Origin: a virus
Virus record (IMG/VR): IMGVR_UViG_3300049893_003686
Direction: 5' to 3' (one strand)
Length of the DNA: 64,000 bases
This document shows positions 3,032 through 42,346 of this stretch, piece by piece. The notes beneath the pieces are model-generated. The model did no database searches, had not been told where the DNA came from, and was given only the letters and a program-made list of their open reading frames with translations. The translations under genes were made by a program, and so were the position numbers. Numbering within the stretch: position 1 is the first letter of the stretch; each line of letters begins with the position of its first letter.

Positions 3032-3279
3032 TTTCTCATGTGGGAGTTTATTTTTATTCTGTGGCTTCTTTGGTTTCTGGGGCTTCTTTGGTTTCTAGGG
3101 CCTCTAGGGCTTCTAGGGCTTCTAGGGCTTCTGTGGCTTCTGGGGCTTCTGGGGCTTTTAGGATTTCTGGGGTTTCTGGGGCTTCTTTGGTTTCTATGAC
3201 TTCTGGGGTTTCTGGGGCTTCTGGGGTTTCTGGGGCTTCTGGGGTTTCTGGGGTTTCTGGGGCAAGAGGTGGCAGATGA
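3028..3279 (+). CDS. Candidate small repeat protein (unit B3)
   Basis: AAGAGG-N6-ATG and ATGA junctions at both ends. Confidence 0.3.
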
Positions 3280-3589: not shown

Positions 3590-4078
3590 ATGAATATCTT
3601 CCTAGTAGATACTGATCCAATTAAAGCAGCACAAGCGTTATGCGACAAACATTGTATCAAAATGATTCTAGAAACAGCACAATTGCTATCAACATCAGTA
3701 TACCTCACAAAAGGAGATTTAACAGGGCTGTATAAGCCAACCCATTTAGCACATCCATGTACTAAGTGGGCCTCAGAGTCTAAGATTAATTTTAATTGGC
3801 TAAAGAACCATGGATTAGGCCTTCTGTCGGAATATACGTTTCGATATCGAAAAGAGCATAAGTCAACACAGATAATATTAAAATGCACTAATGAATCTCT
3901 ACCAGACTTACCTGCTACAGATTTTGTTCAGGTAATGCCAGAGGTATATAGACGACCAGATCCTACAGAAGCATATAGGGCTTATTATAATAGTGCAAAG
4001 TATATGATGGCCACGTGGACAAGGCGGCAGCCTCCAGAATGGTGGTGCTCACAATTGTACGTAGAAAAGCACGAATAA
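3590..4078 (+). CDS. Conserved hypothetical protein
   Basis: 162-aa ORF and the first gene after the repeat region. The motifs DKHCIKMILETAQLLS and HPCTKWA recall a widespread phage/bacterial family that I cannot name with certainty. Confidence 0.7.
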   Translation: MNIFLVDTDPIKAAQALCDKHCIKMILETAQLLSTSVYLTKGDLTGLYKPTHLAHPCTKWASESKINFNWLKNHGLGLLSEYTFRYRKEHKSTQIILKCTNESLPDLPATDFVQVMPEVYRRPDPTEAYRAYYNSAKYMMATWTRRQPPEWWCSQLYVEKHE

Positions 4079-7286: not shown

Positions 7287-8768
7287 ATGGAATTTTCAAA
7301 ATTTCTACATACTGACAGTTATAAATTAGCTCACTTCGAGCAATATCCAGCAGCCAAGAAGATGGTTGCTTATGGTGAATTTCGCAAGCCGTATCCTAAT
7401 ATTAAAGATGAGCGAATTGTTGTATACGGCATACAGTATTTAGTAGATAAATTTTTAAACAAACAGTGGACGGTAGAAGAACTTAATGCCGCATCACAAT
7501 TTGCCAGCAAACATAATGCTGGTTTAAAAGAATACCCATTTCCTCGGAAATTATTTACCGACATGATTGCTGAAAATAACGGATACTTTCCAGTTAAGGT
7601 AGAGGCTGTTCCGGACGGAACAGTGGTATACCCACATGTGCCAGTGTATCAGATTACAGCAGAGGGGAAGTATTCGGGTCTGGTAACATACATCGAAAGT
7701 TTTCTGTCGCACTTATGGTATTCAACTACTGTAGCAACTCTTTCACGACATACTAAAACACTTATCAAAAATGCGTTCGATCTTACTGTAGATGATAATA
7801 TGAGGTGGTTACTTGGGAGTCGATTGCATGATTTTGGTTATCGAGGCTGTGCGTCTGATGAGCAGGCTATGATCGGAGGTGCCGCACACCTACTTAATTT
7901 TGATGGTACAGATACGATGCTAGCTGCTGCATATGCACACTATCAAAATAATGGAGAAGAATTTGCACAAAGTATTCCAGCTACAGAGCATTCGGTAATG
8001 ACATCATGGCCATCAGAAGTTGATGCAGTTCGAAATATGATCCACCACTACGGAGATGGTGTATTTGCCTGTGTAGCTGATAGCTATGACTATAAGCACT
8101 TTCTTCATCATGTATTGCCAGCAGTAGCAGCTGATGTGCAGGCTAAGGGCGGCACAATGGTAATTAGACCAGACTCTGGCGATCCACTTAAATCAGTGAT
8201 AGACGGACTCTATGCTTGTCAAAGATATTTTGGAATATCCTATAATAAAAAGGGATTTAAGGTACTGAACAATAGCGCAATAATTCAAGGTGACGGCATT
8301 AATATAGAGATAGTTGATAACATACTTACTGAGGTTATTAATAATGGATTCAGCGCACAGAACGTAGCCTTCGGCATGGGCGCCGGCCTATTACATAAAC
8401 ATAATAGAGATACTATGAGTTTTGCCACTAAGTTATCATATATTGAATATGCAGATGGGACAAGTAGGAACATTATGAAGGCACCTAAAACGGATCCGGA
8501 GAAGTACTCACTACCTGGTATACTTAAGGTAATTAATGATGACCTATTGAAGGTTGGAACAGAAGAAGATCGTGGTAATAACTTGCTGATAACAGTGTAT
8601 GATGGCAGACCAGTAGATTTTAAAGAGAAATTTTCTAACATCCGCGCTAAGGTAGAACATCAATGGAATCTCTTACCGCCTAAAGTAGAAAACCTATTTA
8701 CAGATAAGTTAAAGATGAAGATAAATGAGACAATCTTTAACTTAAGAAATAGCACGTCCAAATCCTAA
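7287..8768 (+). CDS. nadV: Nicotinamide phosphoribosyltransferase (NAMPT)
   Basis: The N-terminal HTDSYKLAHFEQYP matches the TDSYK signature. CGGAGGAA SD at 7273-7280. The length (~493 aa) and the GYRG and GDG blocks fit NAMPT. The track start at 7215 is probably an upstream extension. Confidence 0.9.
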   Translation: MEFSKFLHTDSYKLAHFEQYPAAKKMVAYGEFRKPYPNIKDERIVVYGIQYLVDKFLNKQWTVEELNAASQFASKHNAGLKEYPFPRKLFTDMIAENNGYFPVKVEAVPDGTVVYPHVPVYQITAEGKYSGLVTYIESFLSHLWYSTTVATLSRHTKTLIKNAFDLTVDDNMRWLLGSRLHDFGYRGCASDEQAMIGGAAHLLNFDGTDTMLAAAYAHYQNNGEEFAQSIPATEHSVMTSWPSEVDAVRNMIHHYGDGVFACVADSYDYKHFLHHVLPAVAADVQAKGGTMVIRPDSGDPLKSVIDGLYACQRYFGISYNKKGFKVLNNSAIIQGDGINIEIVDNILTEVINNGFSAQNVAFGMGAGLLHKHNRDTMSFATKLSYIEYADGTSRNIMKAPKTDPEKYSLPGILKVINDDLLKVGTEEDRGNNLLITVYDGRPVDFKEKFSNIRAKVEHQWNLLPPKVENLFTDKLKMKINETIFNLRNSTSKS

Positions 8769-14627: not shown

Positions 14628-17222
14628 ATGAATCCAGGCAAATATACACTACAAGCACAGTCTCTATTTATTGACAGCCAGCGAATTGCTAAAGCATATC
14701 AGCACCAGGCAATTGAGCCCGAGCATATGCTGAAGGCACTATTGCAAAATAAGCATGTCTGCAGTGCATTAAGCAAATATACTATCATTAGCGAGCTTGA
14801 GCGTAAAATAGATTTAGAACTACATAAGATACCTCAAGTGCAGGCAGTGAATTATTTGTCACCACGATTTCTTAAAATTGCTTCTGCAGCAGAGGTAATC
14901 GCTACAAAAGCAAACGTTAAGACCGACATAGTGCATTTCTTACTAGCTCTTACCGACGCACGTGTAAATACTTCGATGAGCGGAAGAATATTGCGCGATG
15001 CGGGCTTGACCAGAGAGTATATCGAAGGTGGTATGGCAAGAGCTGGTAAGCCAAAGCAGAAAGCAACAACGGACTCTGCAGTTAGCAAATACGCCATTGA
15101 TCTCACTCAGCGCGCTAGGGACGGGAAAATAGACCCTATAATTGGCAGGGACGAGGAGATACGTAGAATCATTCAGGTTCTCTCCCGACGTTCGAAGAAT
15201 AGTCCAATTCTAATAGGCAAACCAGGTGTAGGGAAAAATACAATTATAAATGGGCTTGCACAGCGAATTGCGGCAGGAGATGTCCCATCCCCACTAATAG
15301 ATTGTAGAATCATGGCGCTAGATATGGGAGCGCTGTTGGCCGGAGCATCATTGCGTGGCCAATTCGAAGAGCGCATGAAGGCAGTAATTGCTGAGGTAAA
15401 TCAAGAAGATGAGAATATCATTTTGTTTATCGATGAAATCCATACATTGGTAGGAGCCGGTGGAGAGGGGGCATCTGATGCTAGTCAGATGCTAAAACCC
15501 CCGCTTGCTCGTGGCGAGATTCAGGTACTTGGAGCTACCACACCAGACGAATATCGCAATTCAATCGAGAAAGATAAGGCTTTGGAGCGTAGATTCCAAC
15601 CCATTCTTGTCGAAGAACCATCATATGATGAGACATTGCGAATTTTACGCGGAATAAAGACCAAATATGAAGTTCATCACGGGGTTCGCATCCAAGATGC
15701 TTCCCTATCTGCTGCCATAAAGTTCTCACAACGGTATATATCTGGACGACATCTACCAGATAAAGCCATTGATTTAATTGATGAGGCAGCCTCTAGGTTG
15801 CGGGTGGCAATAGATTCTGTGCCAGATGAGCTTGATAGTGAAAGTAGAAAGCTAACTCAATTAAAGATGGAATTAGCTGCAATTCATGGTGACTCTGGAC
15901 ACGATACGCACGAGCATAAGAGTAGATTGGAGCATCAAATTTCAGAGGCGGAGAAATCAGTATCAGGATTGAAGTCCAGATGGGAATCCGAGGTTAGCCT
16001 TATACAATCAATTAGGGCTATCAAGGAAGGTATAGAAGAGTCTAGCGCTAAGCTAGAATCCGAAACTAGAAGTGGAAATATAAGCAAGGCCTCAGAATTA
16101 AAGTACGGACAACTACAACGTCTAAAGGCAGATTTAGAAGTAACTACACGCGATTTAAAATCACTACAAAAAGATGCCCCGCTTATCAAAGAAGAGGTAG
16201 ATCCTAGCGATATTGCCGGCGTAGTAGGTGACATTACAGGAATTCCAATTGCATCAATGCTAGAGTCCGAAAAGGAAAAGCTGCGCAACATGGAACAGTA
16301 CTTATCATCACGTGTAATTGGACAAAAGGAGGCATTAAAGGCGATATCTCAAGCCATTCGCCGTAGTCGCTCAGGCCTTAATGATCCAAATCGACCAGTA
16401 GGTAGCTTCTTTTTTCTGGGCCCAACAGGTGTCGGGAAAACTGAGTTAGCTAAAGCGCTTACCCAATTTCTCTTTGATGACGAACGATCTATGATTCGCT
16501 TGGATATGAGTGAATTCCAAGAAAAGCATACTGTAGCGCGACTTATCGGAGCTCCTCCAGGATATAAAGGTGCCGATGATGGAGGGCAATTAACTGAAGC
16601 CGTCAGACTTAAACCATACTCAGTCATCCTATTTGACGAAGTAGAAAAAGCGCACCCTGATATATTCAATATATTATTGCAAGTACTTGATGATGGTCGA
16701 CTAACAGATAGTCAGAGTAGGCTCGTAGATTTCAAGAATACGGTTATTATTATGACATCAAATGTAGGTTCGCAGCATCTACTTACAGCTACAGCCAGTG
16801 ATGGCAGTCTGCCTGATGAGGCAAAAAATGCAGCATTCTCCGATCTACGAAAGTTATTTAGACCAGAATTTCTTGGAAGAATTGATGACGTAATCATGTT
16901 TCACGGTCTCACCAGAAATAATATAGAACATATTGCCAACATTCAACTAAAGAAAGTTTCAGGAATGTTGGCGACACGTAAATTAACGATGAATATATCA
17001 GAAGCAGCACTTAAGGCCATAGTAGATGCTGGGTTTGAGCCACAATTCGGAGCACGACCATTAAGAAGAGCAATCCAGCGTTGGCTGCAAGATCCATTAT
17101 CTTCAGCTATTCTTGAAGGGGGCTACACAGAAGGTGACACCGTATCTGTAGATTTAGCAGAGGATGATGAAAATACAGGCCTTATATTTAGGCGTATAAA
17201 CACTAATGTGAAAAGCAACTAA
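14628..17222 (+). CDS. clpB: ClpB-type AAA+ disaggregase
   Basis: Clp N-domain, two Walker A loops (GKPGVGKN and GPTGVGKT), a long coiled-coil middle domain between them, and 864 aa. Confidence 0.95.
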   Translation: MNPGKYTLQAQSLFIDSQRIAKAYQHQAIEPEHMLKALLQNKHVCSALSKYTIISELERKIDLELHKIPQVQAVNYLSPRFLKIASAAEVIATKANVKTDIVHFLLALTDARVNTSMSGRILRDAGLTREYIEGGMARAGKPKQKATTDSAVSKYAIDLTQRARDGKIDPIIGRDEEIRRIIQVLSRRSKNSPILIGKPGVGKNTIINGLAQRIAAGDVPSPLIDCRIMALDMGALLAGASLRGQFEERMKAVIAEVNQEDENIILFIDEIHTLVGAGGEGASDASQMLKPPLARGEIQVLGATTPDEYRNSIEKDKALERRFQPILVEEPSYDETLRILRGIKTKYEVHHGVRIQDASLSAAIKFSQRYISGRHLPDKAIDLIDEAASRLRVAIDSVPDELDSESRKLTQLKMELAAIHGDSGHDTHEHKSRLEHQISEAEKSVSGLKSRWESEVSLIQSIRAIKEGIEESSAKLESETRSGNISKASELKYGQLQRLKADLEVTTRDLKSLQKDAPLIKEEVDPSDIAGVVGDITGIPIASMLESEKEKLRNMEQYLSSRVIGQKEALKAISQAIRRSRSGLNDPNRPVGSFFFLGPTGVGKTELAKALTQFLFDDERSMIRLDMSEFQEKHTVARLIGAPPGYKGADDGGQLTEAVRLKPYSVILFDEVEKAHPDIFNILLQVLDDGRLTDSQSRLVDFKNTVIIMTSNVGSQHLLTATASDGSLPDEAKNAAFSDLRKLFRPEFLGRIDDVIMFHGLTRNNIEHIANIQLKKVSGMLATRKLTMNISEAALKAIVDAGFEPQFGARPLRRAIQRWLQDPLSSAILEGGYTEGDTVSVDLAEDDENTGLIFRRINTNVKSN

Positions 17223-17278: not shown

Positions 17279-18409
17279 ATGAAATTCCCTATTATCGAGC
17301 ACACAATTTTACTTACAATAGCAGGCTCTAGGAGTTACGGTATGCACAAAAGTGACTCCGATATAGACCTAAAAGGGATAGCCATCCCTCCTATAGATTC
17401 CTATATTGGAGTTTTACCAAATTTCGAACAAGTAGAGTCATCAGAAGCAATGATGGTATATTATCCTCTACTATCGAATGATGAGAAAGATATTTCAGAT
17501 AAATATAAGCTTGAAGGGGTTATATATGATTTGCGTAAATTCATACGACTGGCATCTGGTTCAAATCCCAATATCTTAGATGTATTATTTTGCGATGATG
17601 AGCACGTCAGGTTCTCATCAAAGGCAGGAGATATCATAAGGGCTAGCAGAGATCTATTCATATCTGCACAGGCTAAGCATACATATTCTGGTTATGCAAC
17701 GGCGCAATTTAAGCGCATTAAGACTCATAGGGGATATCTGCTAAATGCTCCAAAGACAGAGCCAGACAGGAGTGAGTTCGGTCTATCAAAGGACCACTGC
17801 ATTCCACGTGCCCAGGTAGAGGCATCTTTATCAGAGATTAATAAGAAACTTGATGAGTGGGAATTAGATCTTAGCTCTATAGATTCTGAGTCTGACAGAA
17901 TGTCGATATTAAATAATATTGCACAAGTACTATCAGAAATAATGTCAACAACTGACTCTAAATGGAAGAGCTCCGCTAGAAACATCGGCTATGGCGATAA
18001 CCTTATTGAAATTCTAGACAAGGAGCGTAGATTTAGACAGGCTAAGAACGAATGGGATAAATATCAATATTGGAAGAAGGGGCGAAACTCAGCACGAGCG
18101 AAACTAGAAGAAAAATACGGGTATGATACCAAGCACGCTTCTCACTTAGTTAGATTAATGAGGATGTGTTATGAGATTTTAGTAGATGGCAAGGTCAATG
18201 TCAATCGCAAGAAAATAGATGCCGATGAATTAGTTGCGATTCGAGATGGCTCATGGAGCTACGATAAGCTAGAGGAATTCTTTATAACGATGGATAATAA
18301 ATGCAGCGAGCTGTATAATAGTAAGTCATATAGCATTCCACATAGGGTAGATATGAGTGCGATAAATGCATTGTGCGTACAACTCATCTCCGATAAGTAC
18401 AAAATGTGA
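17279..18409 (+). CDS. Pol-beta-superfamily nucleotidyltransferase, RlaP-like (RNA-repair-associated family)
   Basis: The N-terminal GSRSYGMHKSDSDIDLKG matches the G-S-x-x-Y-G..S-D-x-D minimal NTase motif of that family, as I recall it. Confidence 0.6.
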   Translation: MKFPIIEHTILLTIAGSRSYGMHKSDSDIDLKGIAIPPIDSYIGVLPNFEQVESSEAMMVYYPLLSNDEKDISDKYKLEGVIYDLRKFIRLASGSNPNILDVLFCDDEHVRFSSKAGDIIRASRDLFISAQAKHTYSGYATAQFKRIKTHRGYLLNAPKTEPDRSEFGLSKDHCIPRAQVEASLSEINKKLDEWELDLSSIDSESDRMSILNNIAQVLSEIMSTTDSKWKSSARNIGYGDNLIEILDKERRFRQAKNEWDKYQYWKKGRNSARAKLEEKYGYDTKHASHLVRLMRMCYEILVDGKVNVNRKKIDADELVAIRDGSWSYDKLEEFFITMDNKCSELYNSKSYSIPHRVDMSAINALCVQLISDKYKM

Positions 18410-25567: not shown

Positions 25568-25643
25568 GCGCCTGTAGCTCAGCGGATAGAGTACTTGTCT
25601 TCTAAATAAGGTGTCGTAGGTTCGAATCCTACCAGGCGCGCCA
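25568..25643 (+). tRNA. tRNA-Arg (anticodon TCT), CCA encoded
   Basis: Cloverleaf read by hand. Acceptor GCGCCTG/CAGGCGC. D arm GCTC-AGCGGATA-GAGT. Anticodon arm CTTGT-CTTCTAA-ATAAG. Variable loop GTGTC. T arm GTAGG-TTCGAAT-CCTAC. Discriminator G followed by CCA. Confidence 0.9.
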
Positions 25644-25708: not shown

Positions 25709-25792
25709 GGGCCAGTAGACGCGCTCCGCTCATAACGGAGTAAGGGTAATTTGGTTCTGAAAATGTGGGTTCAAGTCCCACCTGGCCCACCA
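25709..25792 (+). tRNA. Atypical tRNA-like element, copy 1 (CAU anticodon loop, no canonical D arm, 24-nt variable region, CCA encoded)
   Basis: Acceptor GGGCCAG/CTGGCCC. Hairpin CTCCG-CTCATAA-CGGAG. T arm GTGGG-TTCAAGT-CCCAC. Discriminator A followed by CCA. Only 8 nt (TAGACGCG) lie in the D-arm position. Identical to 42249..42332. Confidence 0.5.
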
Positions 25793-25936
25793 TTTACACG
25801 TACTCAATTCCTAATCTGACGTACGGTAATAGAATGATTAGGATCTCACTCTTCGGGATTTAAGAGCAACCCTTTAGCCTTAGGCGTTGTAGTACGGAGA
25901 GAAAAGGCCATCTTCTTTTAAGGAGAGCGTCAGCTA

Positions 25937-26572: not shown

Positions 26573-27049
26573 ATGTACTATAACCATATGGCCTTTGCCG
26601 AACGTGTTGCTCGCAAATTTAGCAATGAAGATAGGCATCTTGTTGCCGCACTGCAGATTCGGGGAGGTAATATAGTCAATTATGGGATTAACCGACTTCA
26701 GTATAAAAGAGGCAGTAGCTATTTCGACTGTAGTATTCATGCAGAGGTAGACCTCGCGAGAAAAAGTGGATTCTCGCTAAATGGAGATAAAATCTGCATA
26801 TACCGGTTCAATCGAGCCCAAGAAACAAATGACTATAGAGACAGTAAGCCATGTCCTTTATGCGTAAGGGTCTTATTCCAATCTGGAGCAGGCAAGGTAT
26901 ATTATTCTTTAAACAACAAGGTTCTTAGTAGCAAGGTACACTCTCTTCCCATGCTGGCAGTGGATCCAATCATGTTTACCAAGCAGTATATTCCAAAATA
27001 CAGTACCGAAAGTACAAGGCATATGGATTTTGATGGTTACCTCATTTAG
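26573..27049 (+). CDS. CDA-fold (cytidine/deoxycytidylate-type) zinc deaminase, specificity unknown
   Basis: HAE (..CSIHAEVD..) and PCxxC (..SKPCPLC..) zinc-binding motifs with the expected spacing. Confidence 0.6.
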   Translation: MYYNHMAFAERVARKFSNEDRHLVAALQIRGGNIVNYGINRLQYKRGSSYFDCSIHAEVDLARKSGFSLNGDKICIYRFNRAQETNDYRDSKPCPLCVRVLFQSGAGKVYYSLNNKVLSSKVHSLPMLAVDPIMFTKQYIPKYSTESTRHMDFDGYLI

Positions 27050-28430: not shown

Positions 28431-28510
28431 GAGAATTAATCTAGATATAAGGTCACATTAACTATAACTATAGCGTCATGCTGGCGTATATAGGAATAAT
28501 CGGAGAAAAG

Positions 28511-30802
28511 ATGAAGAAATATATTTTCGCAACGCTACTGCTCGCAACTACAGCGGCAGCATCAAATAGCGATAAATCTCATCATGAAAAGGTGGAGATT
28601 TGTCATAAGGATCATCATGAAATTAGTGTCGACGAGCATGCTGTCGAGGCGCATATTGATCACGGCGATTGTCTCGGGACATGTCCATGCGCCCCATTGC
28701 CAGAATGCCAATCTGATGCTGATTGTACTAACGATCTATTCTGTGATGGCAACGAATCATGCCTCAATGGAAGCTGTGTGGCAGGAGAGTCTCCGTGTGA
28801 GCACAGCTTATCATGTGACGAAGTGGAAGACCTATGTGTGCAACAGCCAGATTGCATTACCGATAGCGATTGTGACGACGGAGTATTTTGTAATAATCAA
28901 GAATTATGTTTAAATGGCTCCTGTGTTTCTTTTGGAGATAGTCCATGCCCAGACTACATTTGTGTAGAAAAGTATGCCATATGCGTATTGCCACCAGAGT
29001 GTCATGTAGATGACGATTGTACGAATGGACTATTTTGCGACGGGCACGAATTATGTTCAAATGGAGCATGCGTATCCAATGTACTTCCATGCCCTGAAAC
29101 AGAACAGTGTGACGAAGAATCTGATGCTTGTTTTAATGCAGGTGAGGGTGAAGGAGAAGGCGAGGGAGAAGGTGAGGGTGAAGGAGAAGGCGAGGGAGAA
29201 GGTGAGGGTGAAGGAGAAGGCGAGGGAGAAGGTGAGGGTGAAGGAGAAGGCGAGGGAGAAGGTGAAGGCGAGGGTGAAGGTGCCGAGAAAACAAACTTAT
29301 TTGTCTCAGGGTCAGGGATTTTTTCATGCTCTGAGTCATCATCTCCAGACCTGTTTATACTTGCACTATTCTTGCCAGCACTGCTAATATCACAAAAGCG
29401 TAGGGCACTAGTAGCAACCTTAGTAATTGGACTATTTTCATTCTCTGCTTCTGCAGAAGGATTAAATCGTGTAGGTGGCCCAACATCATTTAACGATTCC
29501 CCGCAAGCATCATCAGCGGATCTACTGCCTAACCTTACATTGCAGACTGGTCTAAACTTAGATTACTCGCATGCTCCATTGGTGCTCAGAGACGTAGCTT
29601 TTATTAAGCATAGTGATTTGGTCGAACACCAATTCTCAAGTAGCATCAATGCAGCAATGGGATTTCGCGATGTCGTGCAATTAGATCTAGCATTGCCCAT
29701 TTCAGTCGCAACAGGACAGGGTTTAAATTTGGATGGAACACCATCAGCTGGTCTTCAGGATATGACAGCTGGTGTTAGATTGCGGTTGACTGACAGCAAA
29801 GCACCATTACGCACTGCCCTTAGCCTTAAAGGTACGATGCCAACATCGCTATTGTCATTTAATGGAATGCCAACATTTGGAGAGGTATTCCCGACGCTTA
29901 CCCCAGGAGTCTTACTTACTGCCGGCAATGAGTTGGCATCAGTTACACTAAATACAGGATACACTATTCGTATTCCTAAAAATGTAGCGGATCTTCAAAT
30001 GGGACATACTGTAAATGCAGCTGTAGGTGGACAACTGTGCTTACTTAAAGATAGCTTGTGGTTAGTCGGAGATGTTGGCACAAGTCTATCAGCACAAGGC
30101 TTGTTTACAAATCGATTATTTATGCCAGTAGAGGCGACACTTGGCTTTAAAGGAAAGCACGGTCCTTTCTATGGAATGGTAGCCGCTGGCTCTGGGCTAT
30201 TGCCCGACGTTGGGACCCCTGATGTGCGCGTTTTGGCTTCATTAGGTCTTAATTTTGACTTTGCAACTAAGCAGAAAGCACGTACCACTAGCAAGTTAGT
30301 TACAGAGCATAATCCTCTGCCACCTCCACTTGATTCCGATGGCGATGGGATCCTTGATCAAGATGATAAGTGTCCAAATGATCCAGAGGATTTTGATGGA
30401 TTTGAGGATTCAGATGGGTGCCCAGAGCAAGAGTTAGTAGTAATAGAGTCAGAAAAAATCATATTGTTATCCCCAGTGTACTTTTTCTTTGACTCAGATC
30501 AAATTAAACCAGAAAGCTTTCAAGTATTGAATGATGTGGCAACTGTACTAAAAGAGCATACTGAGATTAAGCTATTGTCTATTGAGGGGCATGCCTCAGC
30601 AGAAGGTGAATTGGATTATAACCAAGCACTTAGTGAACGCCGAGCTTTGGCAATAGTAAAATTCCTCCAAAAGGCAGGAGTTGCTACAGAACGACTTGTT
30701 GCACTCGGGCATGGAGAGAATAATCCGGCTGAATCAAATAAGACAAAAGCTGGACGTGAAAAAAATCGCCGCGTAGAGTTTCGTATTCTAGAAAAGCAGT
30801 GA
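28511..30802 (+). CDS. Composite OmpA-family envelope protein: signal peptide, 4 Cys-rich repeats, (EG)n tract, internal sorting-signal-like/TM pair, putative beta-barrel region, thrombospondin type-3 (DxDxDG) repeats, OmpA C-terminal peptidoglycan-binding domain
   Basis: GGAGAAAAG SD precedes ATG 28511 (MKKYIFATLLLATTAAAS). Four repeats match DxDCxxxxFCxGxExCxNGxC. The TSP3 repeats read DSDGDGILDQDDKCPNDPEDFDGFEDSDGCPE. The OmpA_C domain reads ..IEGHASAEG..YNQALSERRA..NRRVEF. Confidence 0.85.
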   Translation: MKKYIFATLLLATTAAASNSDKSHHEKVEICHKDHHEISVDEHAVEAHIDHGDCLGTCPCAPLPECQSDADCTNDLFCDGNESCLNGSCVAGESPCEHSLSCDEVEDLCVQQPDCITDSDCDDGVFCNNQELCLNGSCVSFGDSPCPDYICVEKYAICVLPPECHVDDDCTNGLFCDGHELCSNGACVSNVLPCPETEQCDEESDACFNAGEGEGEGEGEGEGEGEGEGEGEGEGEGEGEGEGEGEGEGEGEGEGEGAEKTNLFVSGSGIFSCSESSSPDLFILALFLPALLISQKRRALVATLVIGLFSFSASAEGLNRVGGPTSFNDSPQASSADLLPNLTLQTGLNLDYSHAPLVLRDVAFIKHSDLVEHQFSSSINAAMGFRDVVQLDLALPISVATGQGLNLDGTPSAGLQDMTAGVRLRLTDSKAPLRTALSLKGTMPTSLLSFNGMPTFGEVFPTLTPGVLLTAGNELASVTLNTGYTIRIPKNVADLQMGHTVNAAVGGQLCLLKDSLWLVGDVGTSLSAQGLFTNRLFMPVEATLGFKGKHGPFYGMVAAGSGLLPDVGTPDVRVLASLGLNFDFATKQKARTTSKLVTEHNPLPPPLDSDGDGILDQDDKCPNDPEDFDGFEDSDGCPEQELVVIESEKIILLSPVYFFFDSDQIKPESFQVLNDVATVLKEHTEIKLLSIEGHASAEGELDYNQALSERRALAIVKFLQKAGVATERLVALGHGENNPAESNKTKAGREKNRRVEFRILEKQ
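29141..29282 (+). repeat. Perfect 30-bp tandem repeat x4 plus a partial copy, encoding (GE)n inside the OmpA-family gene
   Basis: GGTGAGGGTGAAGGAGAAGGCGAGGGAGAA occurs at 29141, 29171, 29201 and 29231 with no mismatch seen. A divergent partial copy spans 29261-29282. Confidence 0.95.
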
Positions 30803-30857: not shown

Positions 30858-31628
30858 ATGAGCAGTAATGAACTTGGTTTGAAGATTAAAAGTTTATATG
30901 AAAATCGTACACGACTCTTGCTAGATCAAGATGAGTATATAATTATCAGAATTGATGGTAAGAATTTTTCAAGATATACTCGTAAGCTCAAAAAGCCATT
31001 CGATCAGGATCTTGCAGATGATTTCGACCAAACTGCTAAGATATTGTGCTCTCAAATCATGGGAGCACATATGGCATATACTCAAAGTGATGAGATAAGT
31101 ATTGTAGTTTCGAATTTTAGTTCTTCAGGTAAGGACATCTGGTTTAACGGAAATATACAAAAAATAGTTTCAGTATCATGTTCAATGGCAACAGCATCAT
31201 TTAATGATTCAAGAATAAAGCGAAGTGTTGATTATAAAGGTGGAATTTTTGATTCTAGGGTATTTACAATACCTGATCGCTCATCAGTATTAGAGTATTT
31301 AACCTGGAGACAAAAGGATGCAAGTAGAAATTCCATTTCCATGATTGCAAGAAGCGTAATGAGTAGTAAAGAAATGCATGGAATTTCTACTGGCAAAATA
31401 ATAGAGATTTTAAAAGATAGAGGAATAGACCTCAAAATATATAATCAAGGTCTATTGTATGGAAGAATTATTTTCAAAGAAAAATTTACAGTAACCGCTA
31501 CTCATAGTGAATACGGGATTGCTCAAAATTCTGATTCACTCAGAACAAGATGGGTAGCTAAGACAGCACCAAATTTCTCTAAAGAAGACATTTCCATAGA
31601 ATTGATTCCAGAAAGAAAGCTTTCTTGA
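30858..31628 (+). CDS. Thg1-like protein (tRNA-His guanylyltransferase / 3'-5' polymerase family, TLP)
   Basis: IIRIDGKNFSRYT..KPFDQDLADDF..MAYTQSDEISIV matches the Thg1 palm-domain blocks. Confidence 0.8.
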   Translation: MSSNELGLKIKSLYENRTRLLLDQDEYIIIRIDGKNFSRYTRKLKKPFDQDLADDFDQTAKILCSQIMGAHMAYTQSDEISIVVSNFSSSGKDIWFNGNIQKIVSVSCSMATASFNDSRIKRSVDYKGGIFDSRVFTIPDRSSVLEYLTWRQKDASRNSISMIARSVMSSKEMHGISTGKIIEILKDRGIDLKIYNQGLLYGRIIFKEKFTVTATHSEYGIAQNSDSLRTRWVAKTAPNFSKEDISIELIPERKLS

Positions 31629-37320: not shown

Positions 37321-37484
37321 TGATGGACCCACAAGCCATCAGTTGGTCGCTAAAAGACTCGGCAAGGGCTGCCGCTATAATAGCCTATATTTATTAGTTT
37401 AATAGCTTATTAAACCACCCACAAGCAGATATATACATATGCCTTAATTTTAAGGTAGTATTATGTACTGCTTGTGGGTGGGTT
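37321..37484 (+). ncRNA. Candidate structured RNA upstream of the Ro60/TROVE gene (possible Y-RNA-like or regulatory element)
   Basis: First hairpin: TGATGG-ACCCACAAG-CCATCA (37321-37341). Second, long hairpin at 37413-37484: AACCACCCACAAGCAG..CTGCTTGTGGGTGGGTT, with 14 perfect bp, a bulged G and an inner CCTTAA-tt-TTAAGG. CCCACAAGC occurs twice and its complement once. Confidence 0.35.
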
Positions 37485-37506
37485 ATTAATAACTATATAC
37501 TGATAT

Positions 37507-37782
37507 ATGGCAATTACTCCATTAGAGTTGCAAACTCTTAGTACAGAGCAGATATCGAGCATCTCTCGGGCACGCTCTATAATAGACGCAGAGTTACGAT
37601 TAAAAGTCGACGAAGCATTTCCTATAAAGATTAGGCAGGGTATAATTGACTTTATTTTTAAAGAAAATGCAATGGTGCTCGATGCTCTGATATCAGAGTA
37701 CCGCGCAGCAGGATGGGAAGTGGTTACTTATTTGAGCGACAGTCAAGGTACATGGCTCAGCTTCTATCCTAGTTCTACGTGA
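37507..37782 (+). CDS. Hypothetical protein
   Basis: 91-aa ORF. Confidence 0.55.
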   Translation: MAITPLELQTLSTEQISSISRARSIIDAELRLKVDEAFPIKIRQGIIDFIFKENAMVLDALISEYRAAGWEVVTYLSDSQGTWLSFYPSST

Positions 37783-37852: not shown

Positions 37853-39460
37853 ATGTCAATATTAAATACCGATGCAACTCAAACTCAGATATATGATAAT
37901 CGACAGATAAGAAATTCTGCTGGCGGCTATTCATTTGCAGTGGAAAATATGGATTATGTGCGGCGATTTCTAATTTTAGGAAGCGAGGGCGCGCAATATA
38001 GCCTACAGAATAGGCCAACTCTGTCGTTAGAGAACTGCCCGCATATATTGTTTATGCTAGATGCCGATGGCCAAAAAGTAGTAGAAGAGCTGGTCAAGGT
38101 ATCATTACAAGGCAGGGCGCCGAAGCAAGAGCCGACACTATTCGTATTAGCACTGGCAGCTAGACATAAGGATCTCGCTGTGCGTAAAGCCGCATTTGAT
38201 GCCGTGCAGAAGGTATGTCGCACAGCAACTATGCTATTTACCTTCTTAGATTTCTATAAAAAGTCCGGGGTGACATCTGGCTGGGGTCGCCTTATGCGAG
38301 ATGCGATATCGTCATGGTATAATAATAAGGATTTGCAATCTTTAATATATCAAGTTACGAAATATGGTAGTAGAAATGGGTGGTCGCATCAAGATGTGCT
38401 ACGTTTAGCACACACAAGGCCAGTAGATCAAGATCATTCTCTGTTATATAAGAAGATTACTTCTAAAAATAAGTTTAATATCGACATCAATATCGCTTCT
38501 GATAAGAATGCTTTTAATAAACTGCTAGCCATTGAAGCGGTGAAATTAGCAACAGAGGCAAAAAGTATCATCCCGTTAATTACAGAATTTAATTTAGTAC
38601 ATGAGCAGGTACCATCATCGCTAAAGCTTTGTCCCGATGTATGGGATGCATTGCTAGATAATATGCCATTAACTGCATTAATTCGTAATCTAGGAGCGAT
38701 GACATCCTCCGGGTTGCTTGTTAATGGAAATAGTGCTTCAAGAAGAGTGAGAGAAAAGCTATCTAATTTAGATACAATTAAGAGTGCAAGAATACATCCA
38801 TTTAATGTACTCACAGCATACAATACCTATGCAAAAGGAGTTGGTCAATTAGGTCACAAAAAATGGAACCCTAGTGAAGATATTATTGAAGCGCTAGATA
38901 GCCTATTCTATACCTCATTTACATTTATAGATCCATCGCATAAGCGCACACATCTCGCTATTGATGTATCGCGTTCGATGGATATGGGTACAATTCTTGG
39001 CTCGCCGGGGATGTCTCCTCGATTCGGCGCAGCCGCAATGTCAATGGCAACGCTGCGTTCTGAGGATAATGTTTCGATGAGCGCATTTTCGCATACATTA
39101 GTACCGCTACAATTTTCACCCAAAGATGATTTGCAGACAGTTATCAAGAAGATGAGGTCTATTAAAATGGGCGCCACAGATTGCGCCCTACCAATAACCA
39201 CTGCCATGCAGTCGAAGACCCCTATTGATACATTTGTTATATATACCGATAATGAAACTTGGTTCGGAAACGTTCACCCAATGGCAGCATTGCGCCAATA
39301 TCGAGATAGAATGGGAATTCCTGCCAGACTCATTGTCGTTGCAATGAAAGAAACAAACTTTACCATTGCAGATCCCGAAGATGCGGGTGCATTGGATGTA
39401 GTTGGATTTGATTCTGCCACTCCAGCTGTCATAGCAGAATTTTCACGCGGGGAGTTATAA
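37853..39460 (+). CDS. Ro60-related TROVE-domain protein with a C-terminal vWA domain
   Basis: The N-terminal NSAGGYSFAVENMDYVRRFLILGSEGAQY is characteristic of Ro/Rsr. The MIDAS DxSxS motif appears as IDVSRSM. 535 aa. Confidence 0.9.
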   Translation: MSILNTDATQTQIYDNRQIRNSAGGYSFAVENMDYVRRFLILGSEGAQYSLQNRPTLSLENCPHILFMLDADGQKVVEELVKVSLQGRAPKQEPTLFVLALAARHKDLAVRKAAFDAVQKVCRTATMLFTFLDFYKKSGVTSGWGRLMRDAISSWYNNKDLQSLIYQVTKYGSRNGWSHQDVLRLAHTRPVDQDHSLLYKKITSKNKFNIDINIASDKNAFNKLLAIEAVKLATEAKSIIPLITEFNLVHEQVPSSLKLCPDVWDALLDNMPLTALIRNLGAMTSSGLLVNGNSASRRVREKLSNLDTIKSARIHPFNVLTAYNTYAKGVGQLGHKKWNPSEDIIEALDSLFYTSFTFIDPSHKRTHLAIDVSRSMDMGTILGSPGMSPRFGAAAMSMATLRSEDNVSMSAFSHTLVPLQFSPKDDLQTVIKKMRSIKMGATDCALPITTAMQSKTPIDTFVIYTDNETWFGNVHPMAALRQYRDRMGIPARLIVVAMKETNFTIADPEDAGALDVVGFDSATPAVIAEFSRGEL

Positions 39461-41161: not shown

Positions 41162-41677
41162 GTGGCTCTAATAGGATTCAATCCACGTCATAACTATGAT
41201 GTACGACTTACTATAGAAGATGGCCCGCAACTTGGAGTTTATAAGTTACAGGATGCAATAAGAATTGCCACAGAGCGTGGATTGGATCTGGTAAATATAT
41301 CGCCGCAAGCTAAGCCGCCAGTAGCAAAGATAATGGATCATGGTCGGTTCAAGTATCGCCAAAAGCAGGCTGCTAAAGAGGCTAAGAAGAAGCAGCATGT
41401 GGTTGTGCTCAAAGAAATCAAATTAGGCGTAAACATAGAGAGGCACGATCTTGATGTTAAGCTATCTAAGATTAAAGAATGTATTGTTGATGGATGCAAG
41501 GTAAAGATTGTCATTCGATTCTATGGTAGAGAAAACGCTCATAAGGAACTCGGTTCTACATTGATGGATGCAATTCTTACGGAAATCAAAGATTTTGTCA
41601 TAATAGAAACCCCACCTACCTCAGAACGCAGGGAGATTTTCGCTATAGTGAGACCTAAAAATGATAAAAAAGCTTAA
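41162..41677 (+). CDS. infC: Translation initiation factor IF-3
   Basis: The N-domain reads VRLTIEDGPQLGVYKLQDAIRIATERGLDLV, the linker reads KYRQKQAAKEAKKKQ, and the C-domain reads LKEIKLGVNIERHDLDVK..FYGRENAH. The predicted GTG start abuts the upstream stop. Confidence 0.9.
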   Translation: MALIGFNPRHNYDVRLTIEDGPQLGVYKLQDAIRIATERGLDLVNISPQAKPPVAKIMDHGRFKYRQKQAAKEAKKKQHVVVLKEIKLGVNIERHDLDVKLSKIKECIVDGCKVKIVIRFYGRENAHKELGSTLMDAILTEIKDFVIIETPPTSERREIFAIVRPKNDKKA

Positions 41678-42248: not shown

Positions 42249-42332
42249 GGGCCAGTAGACGCGCTCCGCTCATAACGGAGTAAGGGTAATTTGGTTCTGA
42301 AAATGTGGGTTCAAGTCCCACCTGGCCCACCA
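42249..42332 (+). tRNA. Atypical tRNA-like element, copy 2 (identical to 25709..25792)
   Basis: The 84 nt are identical by eye, including the CCA. Identity continues for 3 nt (TTT) downstream, while the upstream flanks differ. Confidence 0.5.
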
Positions 42333-42346
42333 TTTTAACATCTTAG

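Follow-up and report, generated by a model that had tools for sequence, protein, structure and literature searches.

The 64,000-nucleotide (nt) stretch of viral DNA IMGVR_UViG_3300049893_003686 from IMG/VR (referred to here as the window, always at its full length) carries two copies of an 84-nt tRNA-like element with the anticodon CAU and an encoded CCA end. A reading of the window and a repeat finder (repeat family D4) both placed the copies within an exact direct repeat of 87 nt (25709-25795 and 42249-42335, 100% identical and spaced 16,540 nt apart), which consists of the element, including its CCA, plus TTT, and the 5' flanks of the two copies diverge right up to the first G of the element. 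An initial annotation, made from the letters alone, had described the copies as identical through the CCA and 3 nt beyond it, with unrelated upstream flanks, and had read in them an acceptor stem, a discriminator base, a T arm, an anticodon hairpin, 8 nt in the position of the D arm and 24 nt in the variable position; all of this was recovered as written, the 8-nt segment being TAGACGCG and the 24-nt segment TAAGGGTAATTTGGTTCTGAAAAT.

A canonical tRNA-Arg(UCU) gene lies directly upstream of copy 1 and, together with the two CAU copies, makes up all tRNAs of the window, while the gene of a TilS-like lysidine synthetase starts 145 nt downstream of copy 1. Copy 1 is orthologous to a related element on another contig (L213), with which it has the upstream TCATATG and the downstream TilS gene in common. 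The surroundings of copy 2 differ, with IF3 and an SspB-like gene upstream, and this copy is probably derived, either as a recent duplicate or as a gene-conversion product, raising the dosage of the element. Around both copies, scans for promoters and terminators stayed within the level expected from shuffled sequence.

The Rfam tRNA model RF00005 scored 42.1 bits for both copies, with a gathering score of 29, and in its alignment the D arm was deleted, 3 nt standing against 13 model positions, and a 21-nt insertion was placed in the variable region, in line with the initial description of a tRNA-like element without a canonical D hairpin. Direct reading together with this alignment gave no D-arm hairpin between positions 9 and 26. 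The counts of the remaining cloverleaf are those of a tRNA, with an acceptor stem of 7 base pairs (bp), a 5-bp T stem with a 7-nt loop, a 5-bp anticodon stem with a 7-nt loop, U33 and a purine at position 37, and the minimum free energy (MFE) fold has -30.8 kcal/mol (z = -2.4). ARAGORN in bacterial mode called neither copy and found only the tRNA-Arg(UCU) gene in the window, and its mitochondrial, mammalian-mitochondrial, pseudogene and intron modes returned no call or incoherent calls that varied with the flanks.

Covariation across a family of relatives and the proposed rearranged core

Motif scans for relatives covered IMG/VR (three scans) as well as JGI metagenomes and GTDB genomes (one scan each). 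A covariance model (R1) built from 25 members, with the window sequence among the seed, gave 56 matches, 54 of them distinct, at 48-89 bits, whereas canonical tRNAs of these loci stayed below 38 bits. A further two members with lower scores (43 and 39 bits) were assigned by manual parsing. The window element scored 72.2 bits as a seed member, and the 95%-identical element of L213, which stood outside the seed, 79.8 bits. The element is thus not peculiar to this phage; its family comprises at least 54 distinct genes of Ile and Arg type. The members lie in phage tRNA gene arrays, on the same strand as canonical tRNAs and a few nt from them, and are unannotated. They come from viral and metagenomic contigs and from two cultured phages, namely the crAss-like Bacteroides phage Kehishuvirus 'tikkala' (one Ile-GAU member in a gap of the tRNA array; L081 2495-2571, OQ198717 95577-95653) and Maribacter phage Panino (one unannotated Arg-UCU member, likewise in an array gap; PP540027 28066-28145), where a coding sequence for a "hypothetical protein" of 35 amino acids (aa), probably spurious, overlaps the rearranged tRNA gene at L082 2430-2537 (PP540027 27999-28106).

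Among the matches listed for the GTDB pattern scan (596 Gb of bacterial and archaeal genomes) at least four were true members, all on contigs of metagenome-assembled genomes, and nearly all of the others were canonical tRNA-Thr, tRNA-Ser or tRNA-Leu; this suggests that cellular chromosomes may lack the family. Neither megablast nor blastn against the 50,697 phage records brought up a close relative, whether the query was the region or the 87-mer, and the first motif scan (CTCATAA...GGTTCAAGTCC) gave mostly chance matches in T5-like phages and canonical class-II tRNAs. As judged from these sequences, the family seems to consist mostly of viral, previously unannotated Ile and Arg tRNAs spread over unrelated phage lineages.

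Covariation was tested on a MAFFT alignment of 25 members fitted to no structure (A2), which leaves the test unbiased, and counts were taken from a model-based alignment of 54 members (A5); a MAFFT alignment of 55 members (A4), in which the subgroup with an 8-nt linker stood one column out of register, was set aside. In A2, 95.4% of the cells in four helices were paired and the covariation score was 0.98, compared to 0.23 for column shuffles (reached in 0 of 500) and 0.11-0.17 for controls with slid partners, and the 54-member alignment gave 94.4% paired cells and a score of 0.91 compared to 0.22. All four helices, that is, the acceptor, anticodon and T stems and a helix that we call helix X, covary across the family. 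Helix X is formed by 3 nt of the 8-nt linker and 3 nt of the 24-nt region and continues into the anticodon stem, with a bulge of 2-5 nt between the anticodon arm and its 3' strand. It is 89% paired across the family with strong covariation: pair 12-43 is CG in 46 of the 54 members, UA in seven and AU in one, and is never unpaired, and pair 13-42 is GC in 25, AU in 11, CG in nine and UA in seven.

Directly 3' of helix X, every member reads T-A-R-Y-Y-G-G-N, which is the canonical D-loop consensus from A14 to N20, and the remainder of the 24 nt accordingly reads as a D loop (A14, R15, G18 G19, N20) followed by a linker resembling positions 46-48. The R of this connector covaries with the base directly preceding the T stem (A-U in 50 members, G-C in four), with no exception among the 54 and with two further G-C cases outside that alignment, and the two thereby seem to behave as the R15-Y48 Levitt pair of canonical tRNAs. 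The window element has the TA, TAA, GG-T and final T and with them the A-U version of this pair. Invariant in the family are U8, A9, the connector T-A, A37 and T54/T55/A58. The initial wording of "no D arm, 24-nt variable region" therefore stands as far as the missing D hairpin is concerned, but the two segments are structured, as parts of the 8 and the 24 nt pair with covariation. Because of helix X, the T-A-R-Y-Y-G-G-N motif and the R/Y covariation, a D stem and a D loop appear to be present but differently wired. A hairpin within the connector (ATTT/AAAT in the window, GTAA/TTAC in others) was rejected, its bases being invariant or overlapping helix X, and it fails in two members (L058 and L060).

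Segments 10-21 and 22-45 thus appear to be swapped in order, so that the D domain would be rebuilt with a changed strand connectivity and the chain would run, in canonical numbering, through 1-9, 22-45, 10-21 and 46-76. After U8 A9 it would enter one strand of a short helix leading into the anticodon stem, pass through the anticodon arm and the bulge into the complementary strand, continue with the D-loop sequence A14, R15, Y, Y, G18, G19, N20 and reach the T arm by a short linker ending in Y48. In the core of yeast tRNA-Phe, A9 lies on the 12-23 pair and U8-A14 is stacked on 13-22 (the join of 9 to 22), 10, 25 and 45 form a triple (the join of 45 to 10), and 21 and 46 occupy adjacent layers. 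The three new junctions link residues that are neighbours in the canonical core, and therefore the L shape and the elbow contacts could be kept. By this analogy the contacts of G18G19 with the T loop, U8-A14 and R15-Y48 may be retained, as may the distance from anticodon to elbow, and helix X, a single unpaired base and the 5-bp anticodon stem would approximate the stacked layers of D stem, position 26 and anticodon stem, making an L shape with a normal elbow plausible. The parts of the element are given in Table 1.

Table 1. Parts of the element, neighbouring genes and other features, with canonical tRNA numbering for analogous positions
Feature	Location	Strand	Remarks
Copy 1, rearranged-core tRNA(CAU), 84 nt with encoded CCA	25709..25792	+	Ortholog of L213 gene
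Copy 2	42249..42332	+	Same 87 nt as copy 1, extending to 42335
Acceptor stem 5' strand GGGCCAG	25709..25715	+	Pairs with 25782-25788 CTGGCCC; includes C4-G69, C5-G68
U8 A9	25716..25717	+	Invariant in 54/54 distinct family members
Helix X 5' strand CGC	25720..25722	+	Behaves like D-stem 23-25; partner 25744-25746 GGG
Anticodon arm CTCCG-CTCATAA-CGGAG	25724..25740	+	CAT at 25731-25733; U33, A37, A38, C29-G41
3'-side bulge TAA between anticodon stem and helix X	25741..25743	+	Putative analogue of positions 44-45 in the model
Helix X 3' strand GGG	25744..25746	+	D-stem 10-12-like
D-loop-like connector TAATTTGGTTCTGAAAAT	25747..25764	+	Invariant T-A; A14 analogue at 25748
Connector, A15 analogue	25749	+	Putative pair with U48 analogue 25764
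Connector, G18 G19 analogues	25753-25754	+	
Connector, U20 analogue	25755	+	
T arm GTGGG-TTCAAGT-CCCAC	25765..25781	+	Sequence and family covariation
Discriminator A73 and encoded CCA	25789..25792	+	
Canonical tRNA-Arg(UCU)	25568..25643	+	Directly upstream of copy 1
TilS-like lysidine synthetase, 207 aa	25937..26560	+	N-terminal catalytic PP-loop domain only; TIGR02432
ClpB	14628-17222		
RlaP nucleotidyltransferase	17279-18409		RNA repair pathway
Thg1-like enzyme	30858-31628		tRNA 5'-end repair
Ro60	37853-39460		
IF3	41162-41677		
Long-variable-arm Ile/CAU gene	L075 7373-7466		
Long-variable-arm Ile/CAU genes	L060 948-1040, 1666-1759		
Long-variable-arm Ile/CAU gene	L035 4858-4945		
Long-variable-arm Ile/CAU gene	L004 about 3085-3165		Approximate
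Long-variable-arm Ile/CAU gene	L034 about 7973-8068		Approximate

Several observations on the arrays and on individual matches stand beside these results. One array (L078 2248-3223, IMGVR_UViG_3300050139_000117) holds four rearranged tRNAs (Arg-UCU, Arg-UCG, CAU and Ile-UAU) as well as canonical Arg-UCU, Arg-CCU and Arg-ACG and two Ile-GAU genes, and both architectures are therefore kept for the same codons. An Ile-GAU member found at L055 9734-9806 and L043 6223-6292 has a 5' acceptor strand that does not pair with its 3' strand, which could reflect a pseudogene, an insertion or a 5' end that is split. Also present in the arrays of rearranged tRNAs are genes for tRNA-Ile(UAU) and tRNA(CAU), 88-94 nt in length, in which a normal D arm is combined with a long, stem-forming variable arm (Table 1). 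A long variable arm of class-II type is normally confined to Leu, Ser and Tyr tRNAs. The long tRNA-Ile/Met genes of the same arrays (88-98 nt) were considered as intermediates towards the rearranged form and rejected, given their normal D arm and long variable arm. Within the window, a weak R1 match on the plus strand (3753-3816, 16.5 bits, E = 0.13) is probably due to chance.

Identity elements and the TilS neighbourhood

Members of the family carry the Ile-type anticodons UAU (20), GAU (13) and CAU (6) or anticodons of Arg type (17) and no others, and this holds also for members retrieved by patterns in which the anticodon was left free. In the connector, GG is followed by U in 37 of the 38 Ile-type members, as against A in 15 of the 16 members of Arg type (Fisher p = 2e-13, uncorrected for relatedness), and the discriminator is A in all 38 Ile-type members. 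In bacteria, A20 is the main determinant for ArgRS, and U20 and A73 belong to the Ile identity set (PMC9976931). The form would be restricted to Ile and Arg isoacceptors, whose synthetases read position 20 of the D loop as well as the anticodon.

The window element has CAU within CUCAUAA, A37, A38, A73, C4-G69, C5-G68, C29-G41 and GG-U, and it thereby agrees with the bacterial Ile identity set of A73, C4-G69, C29-G41, A37, A38 and U20 as tabulated in PMC9976931, where its U20 is assigned by analogy with the D loop. The bacterial Met set has U4-A69 and A5-U68 (PMC9976931). By these positions the element would fit tRNA-Ile2 rather than tRNA-Met. Its CUCAUAA and UUCAAGU loops presumably resemble those of E. 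coli ileX, and blastn against E. coli genomes gave no match.

The window TilS passes the N-terminal equivalog TIGR02432 (123 bits, cutoff 93.6), can be aligned with solved TilS structures over their catalytic domain only, and is presumed to be the modifier of C34 of the element. On L213, a contig from a lake metagenome, and also on L219, the 95%-identical element occupies the same position directly upstream of TilS, although the L213 and window TilS proteins are only about 54% identical by tblastn (52% by tblastx); the four differences between the two elements include a compensatory change from U-A to C-G in the anticodon stem. Another TilS relative (L086) is preceded by tRNA-Arg(UCU) and two canonical tRNA(CAU) genes, in the same order as in the window. 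From the gene order in L213, L219 and L086, we infer that the slot upstream of TilS is a tRNA-Ile2 slot, which is filled here by the rearranged form. The codon usage of the window, which has 39% G+C, includes ATA as 40% of Ile codons (30 per 1000, above ATG with 22 per 1000) and AGA as 38% of Arg codons. Among the roles offered in the initial annotation, that of an AUA decoder tied to the TilS-like gene is accordingly the one we favour, in view of the adjacency kept in L213, the CAU slot in L086 and the 40% share of ATA. Phage TilS has been noted before in PA5oct and MIJ3 (PMC6892783). Directly after TilS, the window has an open reading frame (ORF) of the cytidine/deoxycytidylate deaminase family (26573-27049).

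Each copy is thus probably a functional gene of tRNA-Ile2 type and a lysidine-dependent AUA decoder of the rearranged Ile/Arg family, as judged from sequence, covariation, synteny and codon usage. The gene would be co-transcribed with its neighbours and its transcript processed at both ends as in a tRNA, C34 would be converted to lysidine by the catalytic domain encoded downstream, host IleRS would charge the RNA with isoleucine, and the charged RNA would read AUA, the codon behind that share of the phage's Ile codons, with the second copy raising the dosage. For the family as a whole we lean, with some reserve, towards a topological isomer of tRNA in phages, which would be functional, aminoacylated and ribosome-competent, with segments 10-21 and 22-45 exchanged and the core of the L kept, restricted to Ile and Arg, widespread and invisible to annotation, and accompanied here by a single-domain TilS.

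A number of points weigh against this interpretation. Two of the three pairs of helix X form in the window element (C-G, a G.G mismatch, C-G), and together with L213 it is the sole member with a non-pair in the middle of the helix; it also has one extra U in the D-loop-like motif, in common with one other member (L224). The window TilS is without the C-terminal domains that bind the tRNA body in the solved structures, and no rearranged tRNA was found near TilS at 12 other phage loci (nine IMG/VR contigs, PA5oct and two uncultured phages of 630-640 kb). The three-dimensional arrangement is reasoned from canonical tRNA structure rather than computed, and the sampling was driven by motifs, so that the restriction to Ile and Arg could partly reflect the design of the searches.

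Alternative explanations and known non-canonical tRNAs

The anticodon CAU would also suit an extra elongator tRNA-Met with the rearranged core, left unmodified at C34 and reading AUG. Unmodified tRNA-Ile2 is a substrate of MetRS, and the lack of tRNA-body-binding domains in the short TilS points the same way, but for this role TilS would have to leave the element untouched, and the adjacency of the two genes has been kept across about 46% protein divergence. The acceptor stem carries C4-G69 and C5-G68 rather than the corresponding pairs of the Met set (PMC9976931), relatives with unambiguous anticodons are all Ile or Arg, the element itself has the Ile-type GGU and A73, and the unusual demand of the phage is for ATA, not ATG, all of which makes a tRNA-Met very unlikely. 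The repeats could alternatively have been left by, or serve in, site-specific or homologous recombination across the 16.5-kb segment between them, or the element could be a decaying tRNA pseudogene. In favour of the former stand the two perfect 87-nt direct repeats, and tRNA genes are common integration targets. Against this, the repeat starts at tRNA position +1 and spans the whole gene, whereas integration duplicates the 3' part only; a scan of large ORFs between and around the copies detected no integrase domain, and none of the genome matches listed in the GTDB scan was identical to the element. Purifying selection and compensatory changes in the family speak against decay. We therefore find no support for the attachment-site remnant considered in the initial annotation and regard this whole group of explanations as highly improbable.

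A tRNA mimic without a role in translation, serving as decoy or sponge for anticodon nucleases or other tRNA-targeting defences or as partner RNA of Ro60, has the genetic setting in its favour, since the window encodes Ro60, RlaP and a Thg1-like enzyme, so that RNA repair and quality control matter to the phage, and a changed core might let the RNA evade or capture proteins that recognise the D arm. Yet the identity elements (A20 versus U20, and A73) and the intact anticodon loops are under selection, which a decoy would not need, and because the synthetase identity elements stay matched to the anticodon, a decoy or protein-binding mimic is unlikely. The members moreover lie in tRNA arrays, and in the examined stretches of five of these (L040, L044, L045, L055 and L067) no canonical tRNA-Ile was called. 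As to Ro60, copy 2 lies 2.8 kb downstream and copy 1 12 kb upstream of its gene, but Y-RNA models gave no match at the gathering threshold, nor at E <= 1 near Ro60, no Ro60 homologue occurs in the examined flanks of any other family locus, and the ends of the element form a 7-bp acceptor stem with CCA instead of a Ro-binding helix, and the Ro60/Y-RNA partnership proposed initially is thus not upheld.

Placed among known systems, the putative AUA decoder comes closest in its task and identity elements to bacterial tRNA-Ile2 of ileX type and TilS, with CAU in a CUCAUAA loop, A37, A38, a UUCAAGU T loop, A73, C4-G69, C5-G68 and C29-G41, the same expected reading of AUA, and a TilS catalytic domain encoded beside it. 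It differs from bacterial tRNA-Ile2 in having no D hairpin, its D stem and loop seemingly re-created from the 5' linker and the segment after the anticodon, and the system differs in that its TilS is only the N-terminal domain of about 200 aa and in that the tRNA is phage-encoded in two identical copies. The D-armless mitochondrial tRNAs (bovine and human tRNA-Ser(AGY), nematode tRNA-Ser(UCU)) likewise have no D hairpin and an anticodon helix extended by pairing of flanking segments (PMC7609411, PMC9976931). Those mitochondrial forms, however, have lost the elbow contacts of G18G19 with the T loop and need specialised partners, whereas the phage family has kept a canonical T loop, the GG motif, U8, an A14 analogue and a covarying R15-Y48 analogue, and presumably uses ordinary bacterial enzymes. 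In the window element itself, the elbow motifs GG, TTCAAGT and the R15-Y48 analogue are present.

Allo-tRNAs with 8/4 or 9/3 acceptor/T branches were mined from metagenomes and are partly phage-encoded and located in tRNA clusters (PMC5389517, Mukai et al.); they have altered acceptor and T lengths with the D arm kept, while the phage family has the standard 7/5 branch and a rearranged D domain. Reviews of non-canonical tRNAs list loss of the D arm only for mitochondria (PMC7609411, PMC9976931), and a full-text literature search, with subscription journals outside its scope, found no description of a phage tRNA with a rearranged D architecture, which is consistent with the initial statement that D-armless tRNAs are not known from phages. 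In the permuted tRNA genes of the red alga Cyanidioschyzon merolae the order of segments in the gene is non-canonical, as it seems to be in the phage family. The algal transcript, however, is made circular and cut again, which yields a mature tRNA of canonical form; in the phage family the acceptor ends are normally placed, and the mature RNA would retain the rearranged order. Bacterial Y RNAs (YrlA) have a tRNA-like domain bound by Ro60 and resemble the element in their tRNA-like T arm and elbow and in the presence of a Ro60 gene in the same genome, while the element differs in having a true anticodon loop, an acceptor stem and CCA, and in having relatives that occur without Ro60.

Remaining features of the window and implications

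The genes for ClpB, RlaP, the Thg1-like enzyme, Ro60 (with TROVE and vWA domains) and IF3 (Table 1) form a host-like set for RNA and protein quality control. With NAMPT, DHODH, an ATP-dependent DNA ligase and FtsK, which the window also encodes, this is a gene content typical of very large phages. About 340 nt upstream of Ro60, a long near-perfect hairpin on the plus strand (37383-37511, MFE -54 kcal/mol, z = -8.3), whose sole Rfam likeness is a weak one to miRNA-precursor hairpins, could be a terminator or a Y-RNA-like stem for Ro60, and in the latter role it could be a better candidate than the element. The window start (1 to about 1500) is taken up by a very long array of repeats with a 9-nt period, in which repeat families D1 and D2 have over 60 overlapping copies; its probable product is a collagen-like protein of tripeptide repeats, whose gene would extend beyond the first letter of the window. 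Direct repeats of about 115 nt, 96-100% identical and 570 nt apart, lie at 1602-1715 and 2172-2284, and a 30-nt-period GGTGAGGGTGAAGGAGAAGGCGAGGGAGAA repeat, giving a run of Gly-Glu dipeptides, lies at 29110-29300 within the ORF of an OmpA-domain protein (28478-30802).

For phage biology, the rearranged tRNA and the single-domain TilS may together represent a compact and portable module for AUA decoding. Since the genes of the family are invisible to ARAGORN, tRNA repertoires of phages would be under-counted, especially for Ile and Arg decoders (AUA, AGA), which matters for arguments about phages that are drawn from codon usage. The restriction to Ile and Arg also raises the question whether the altered core evades host defences that target tRNAs. 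To our knowledge, the cloverleaf is treated as universal outside organelles. If the proposed topology is true, these would be the first non-organellar tRNAs without a canonical D hairpin, and cloverleaf connectivity would be dispensable for translation on the bacterial ribosome. A selected family in which the tertiary contacts are kept and the chain is rewired would show which features of a tRNA are needed by RNase P and the CCA-adding enzyme, and the same lesson would extend to what synthetases, EF-Tu and the bacterial ribosome require, while its naturally orthogonal-looking scaffold might find use in genetic-code expansion.

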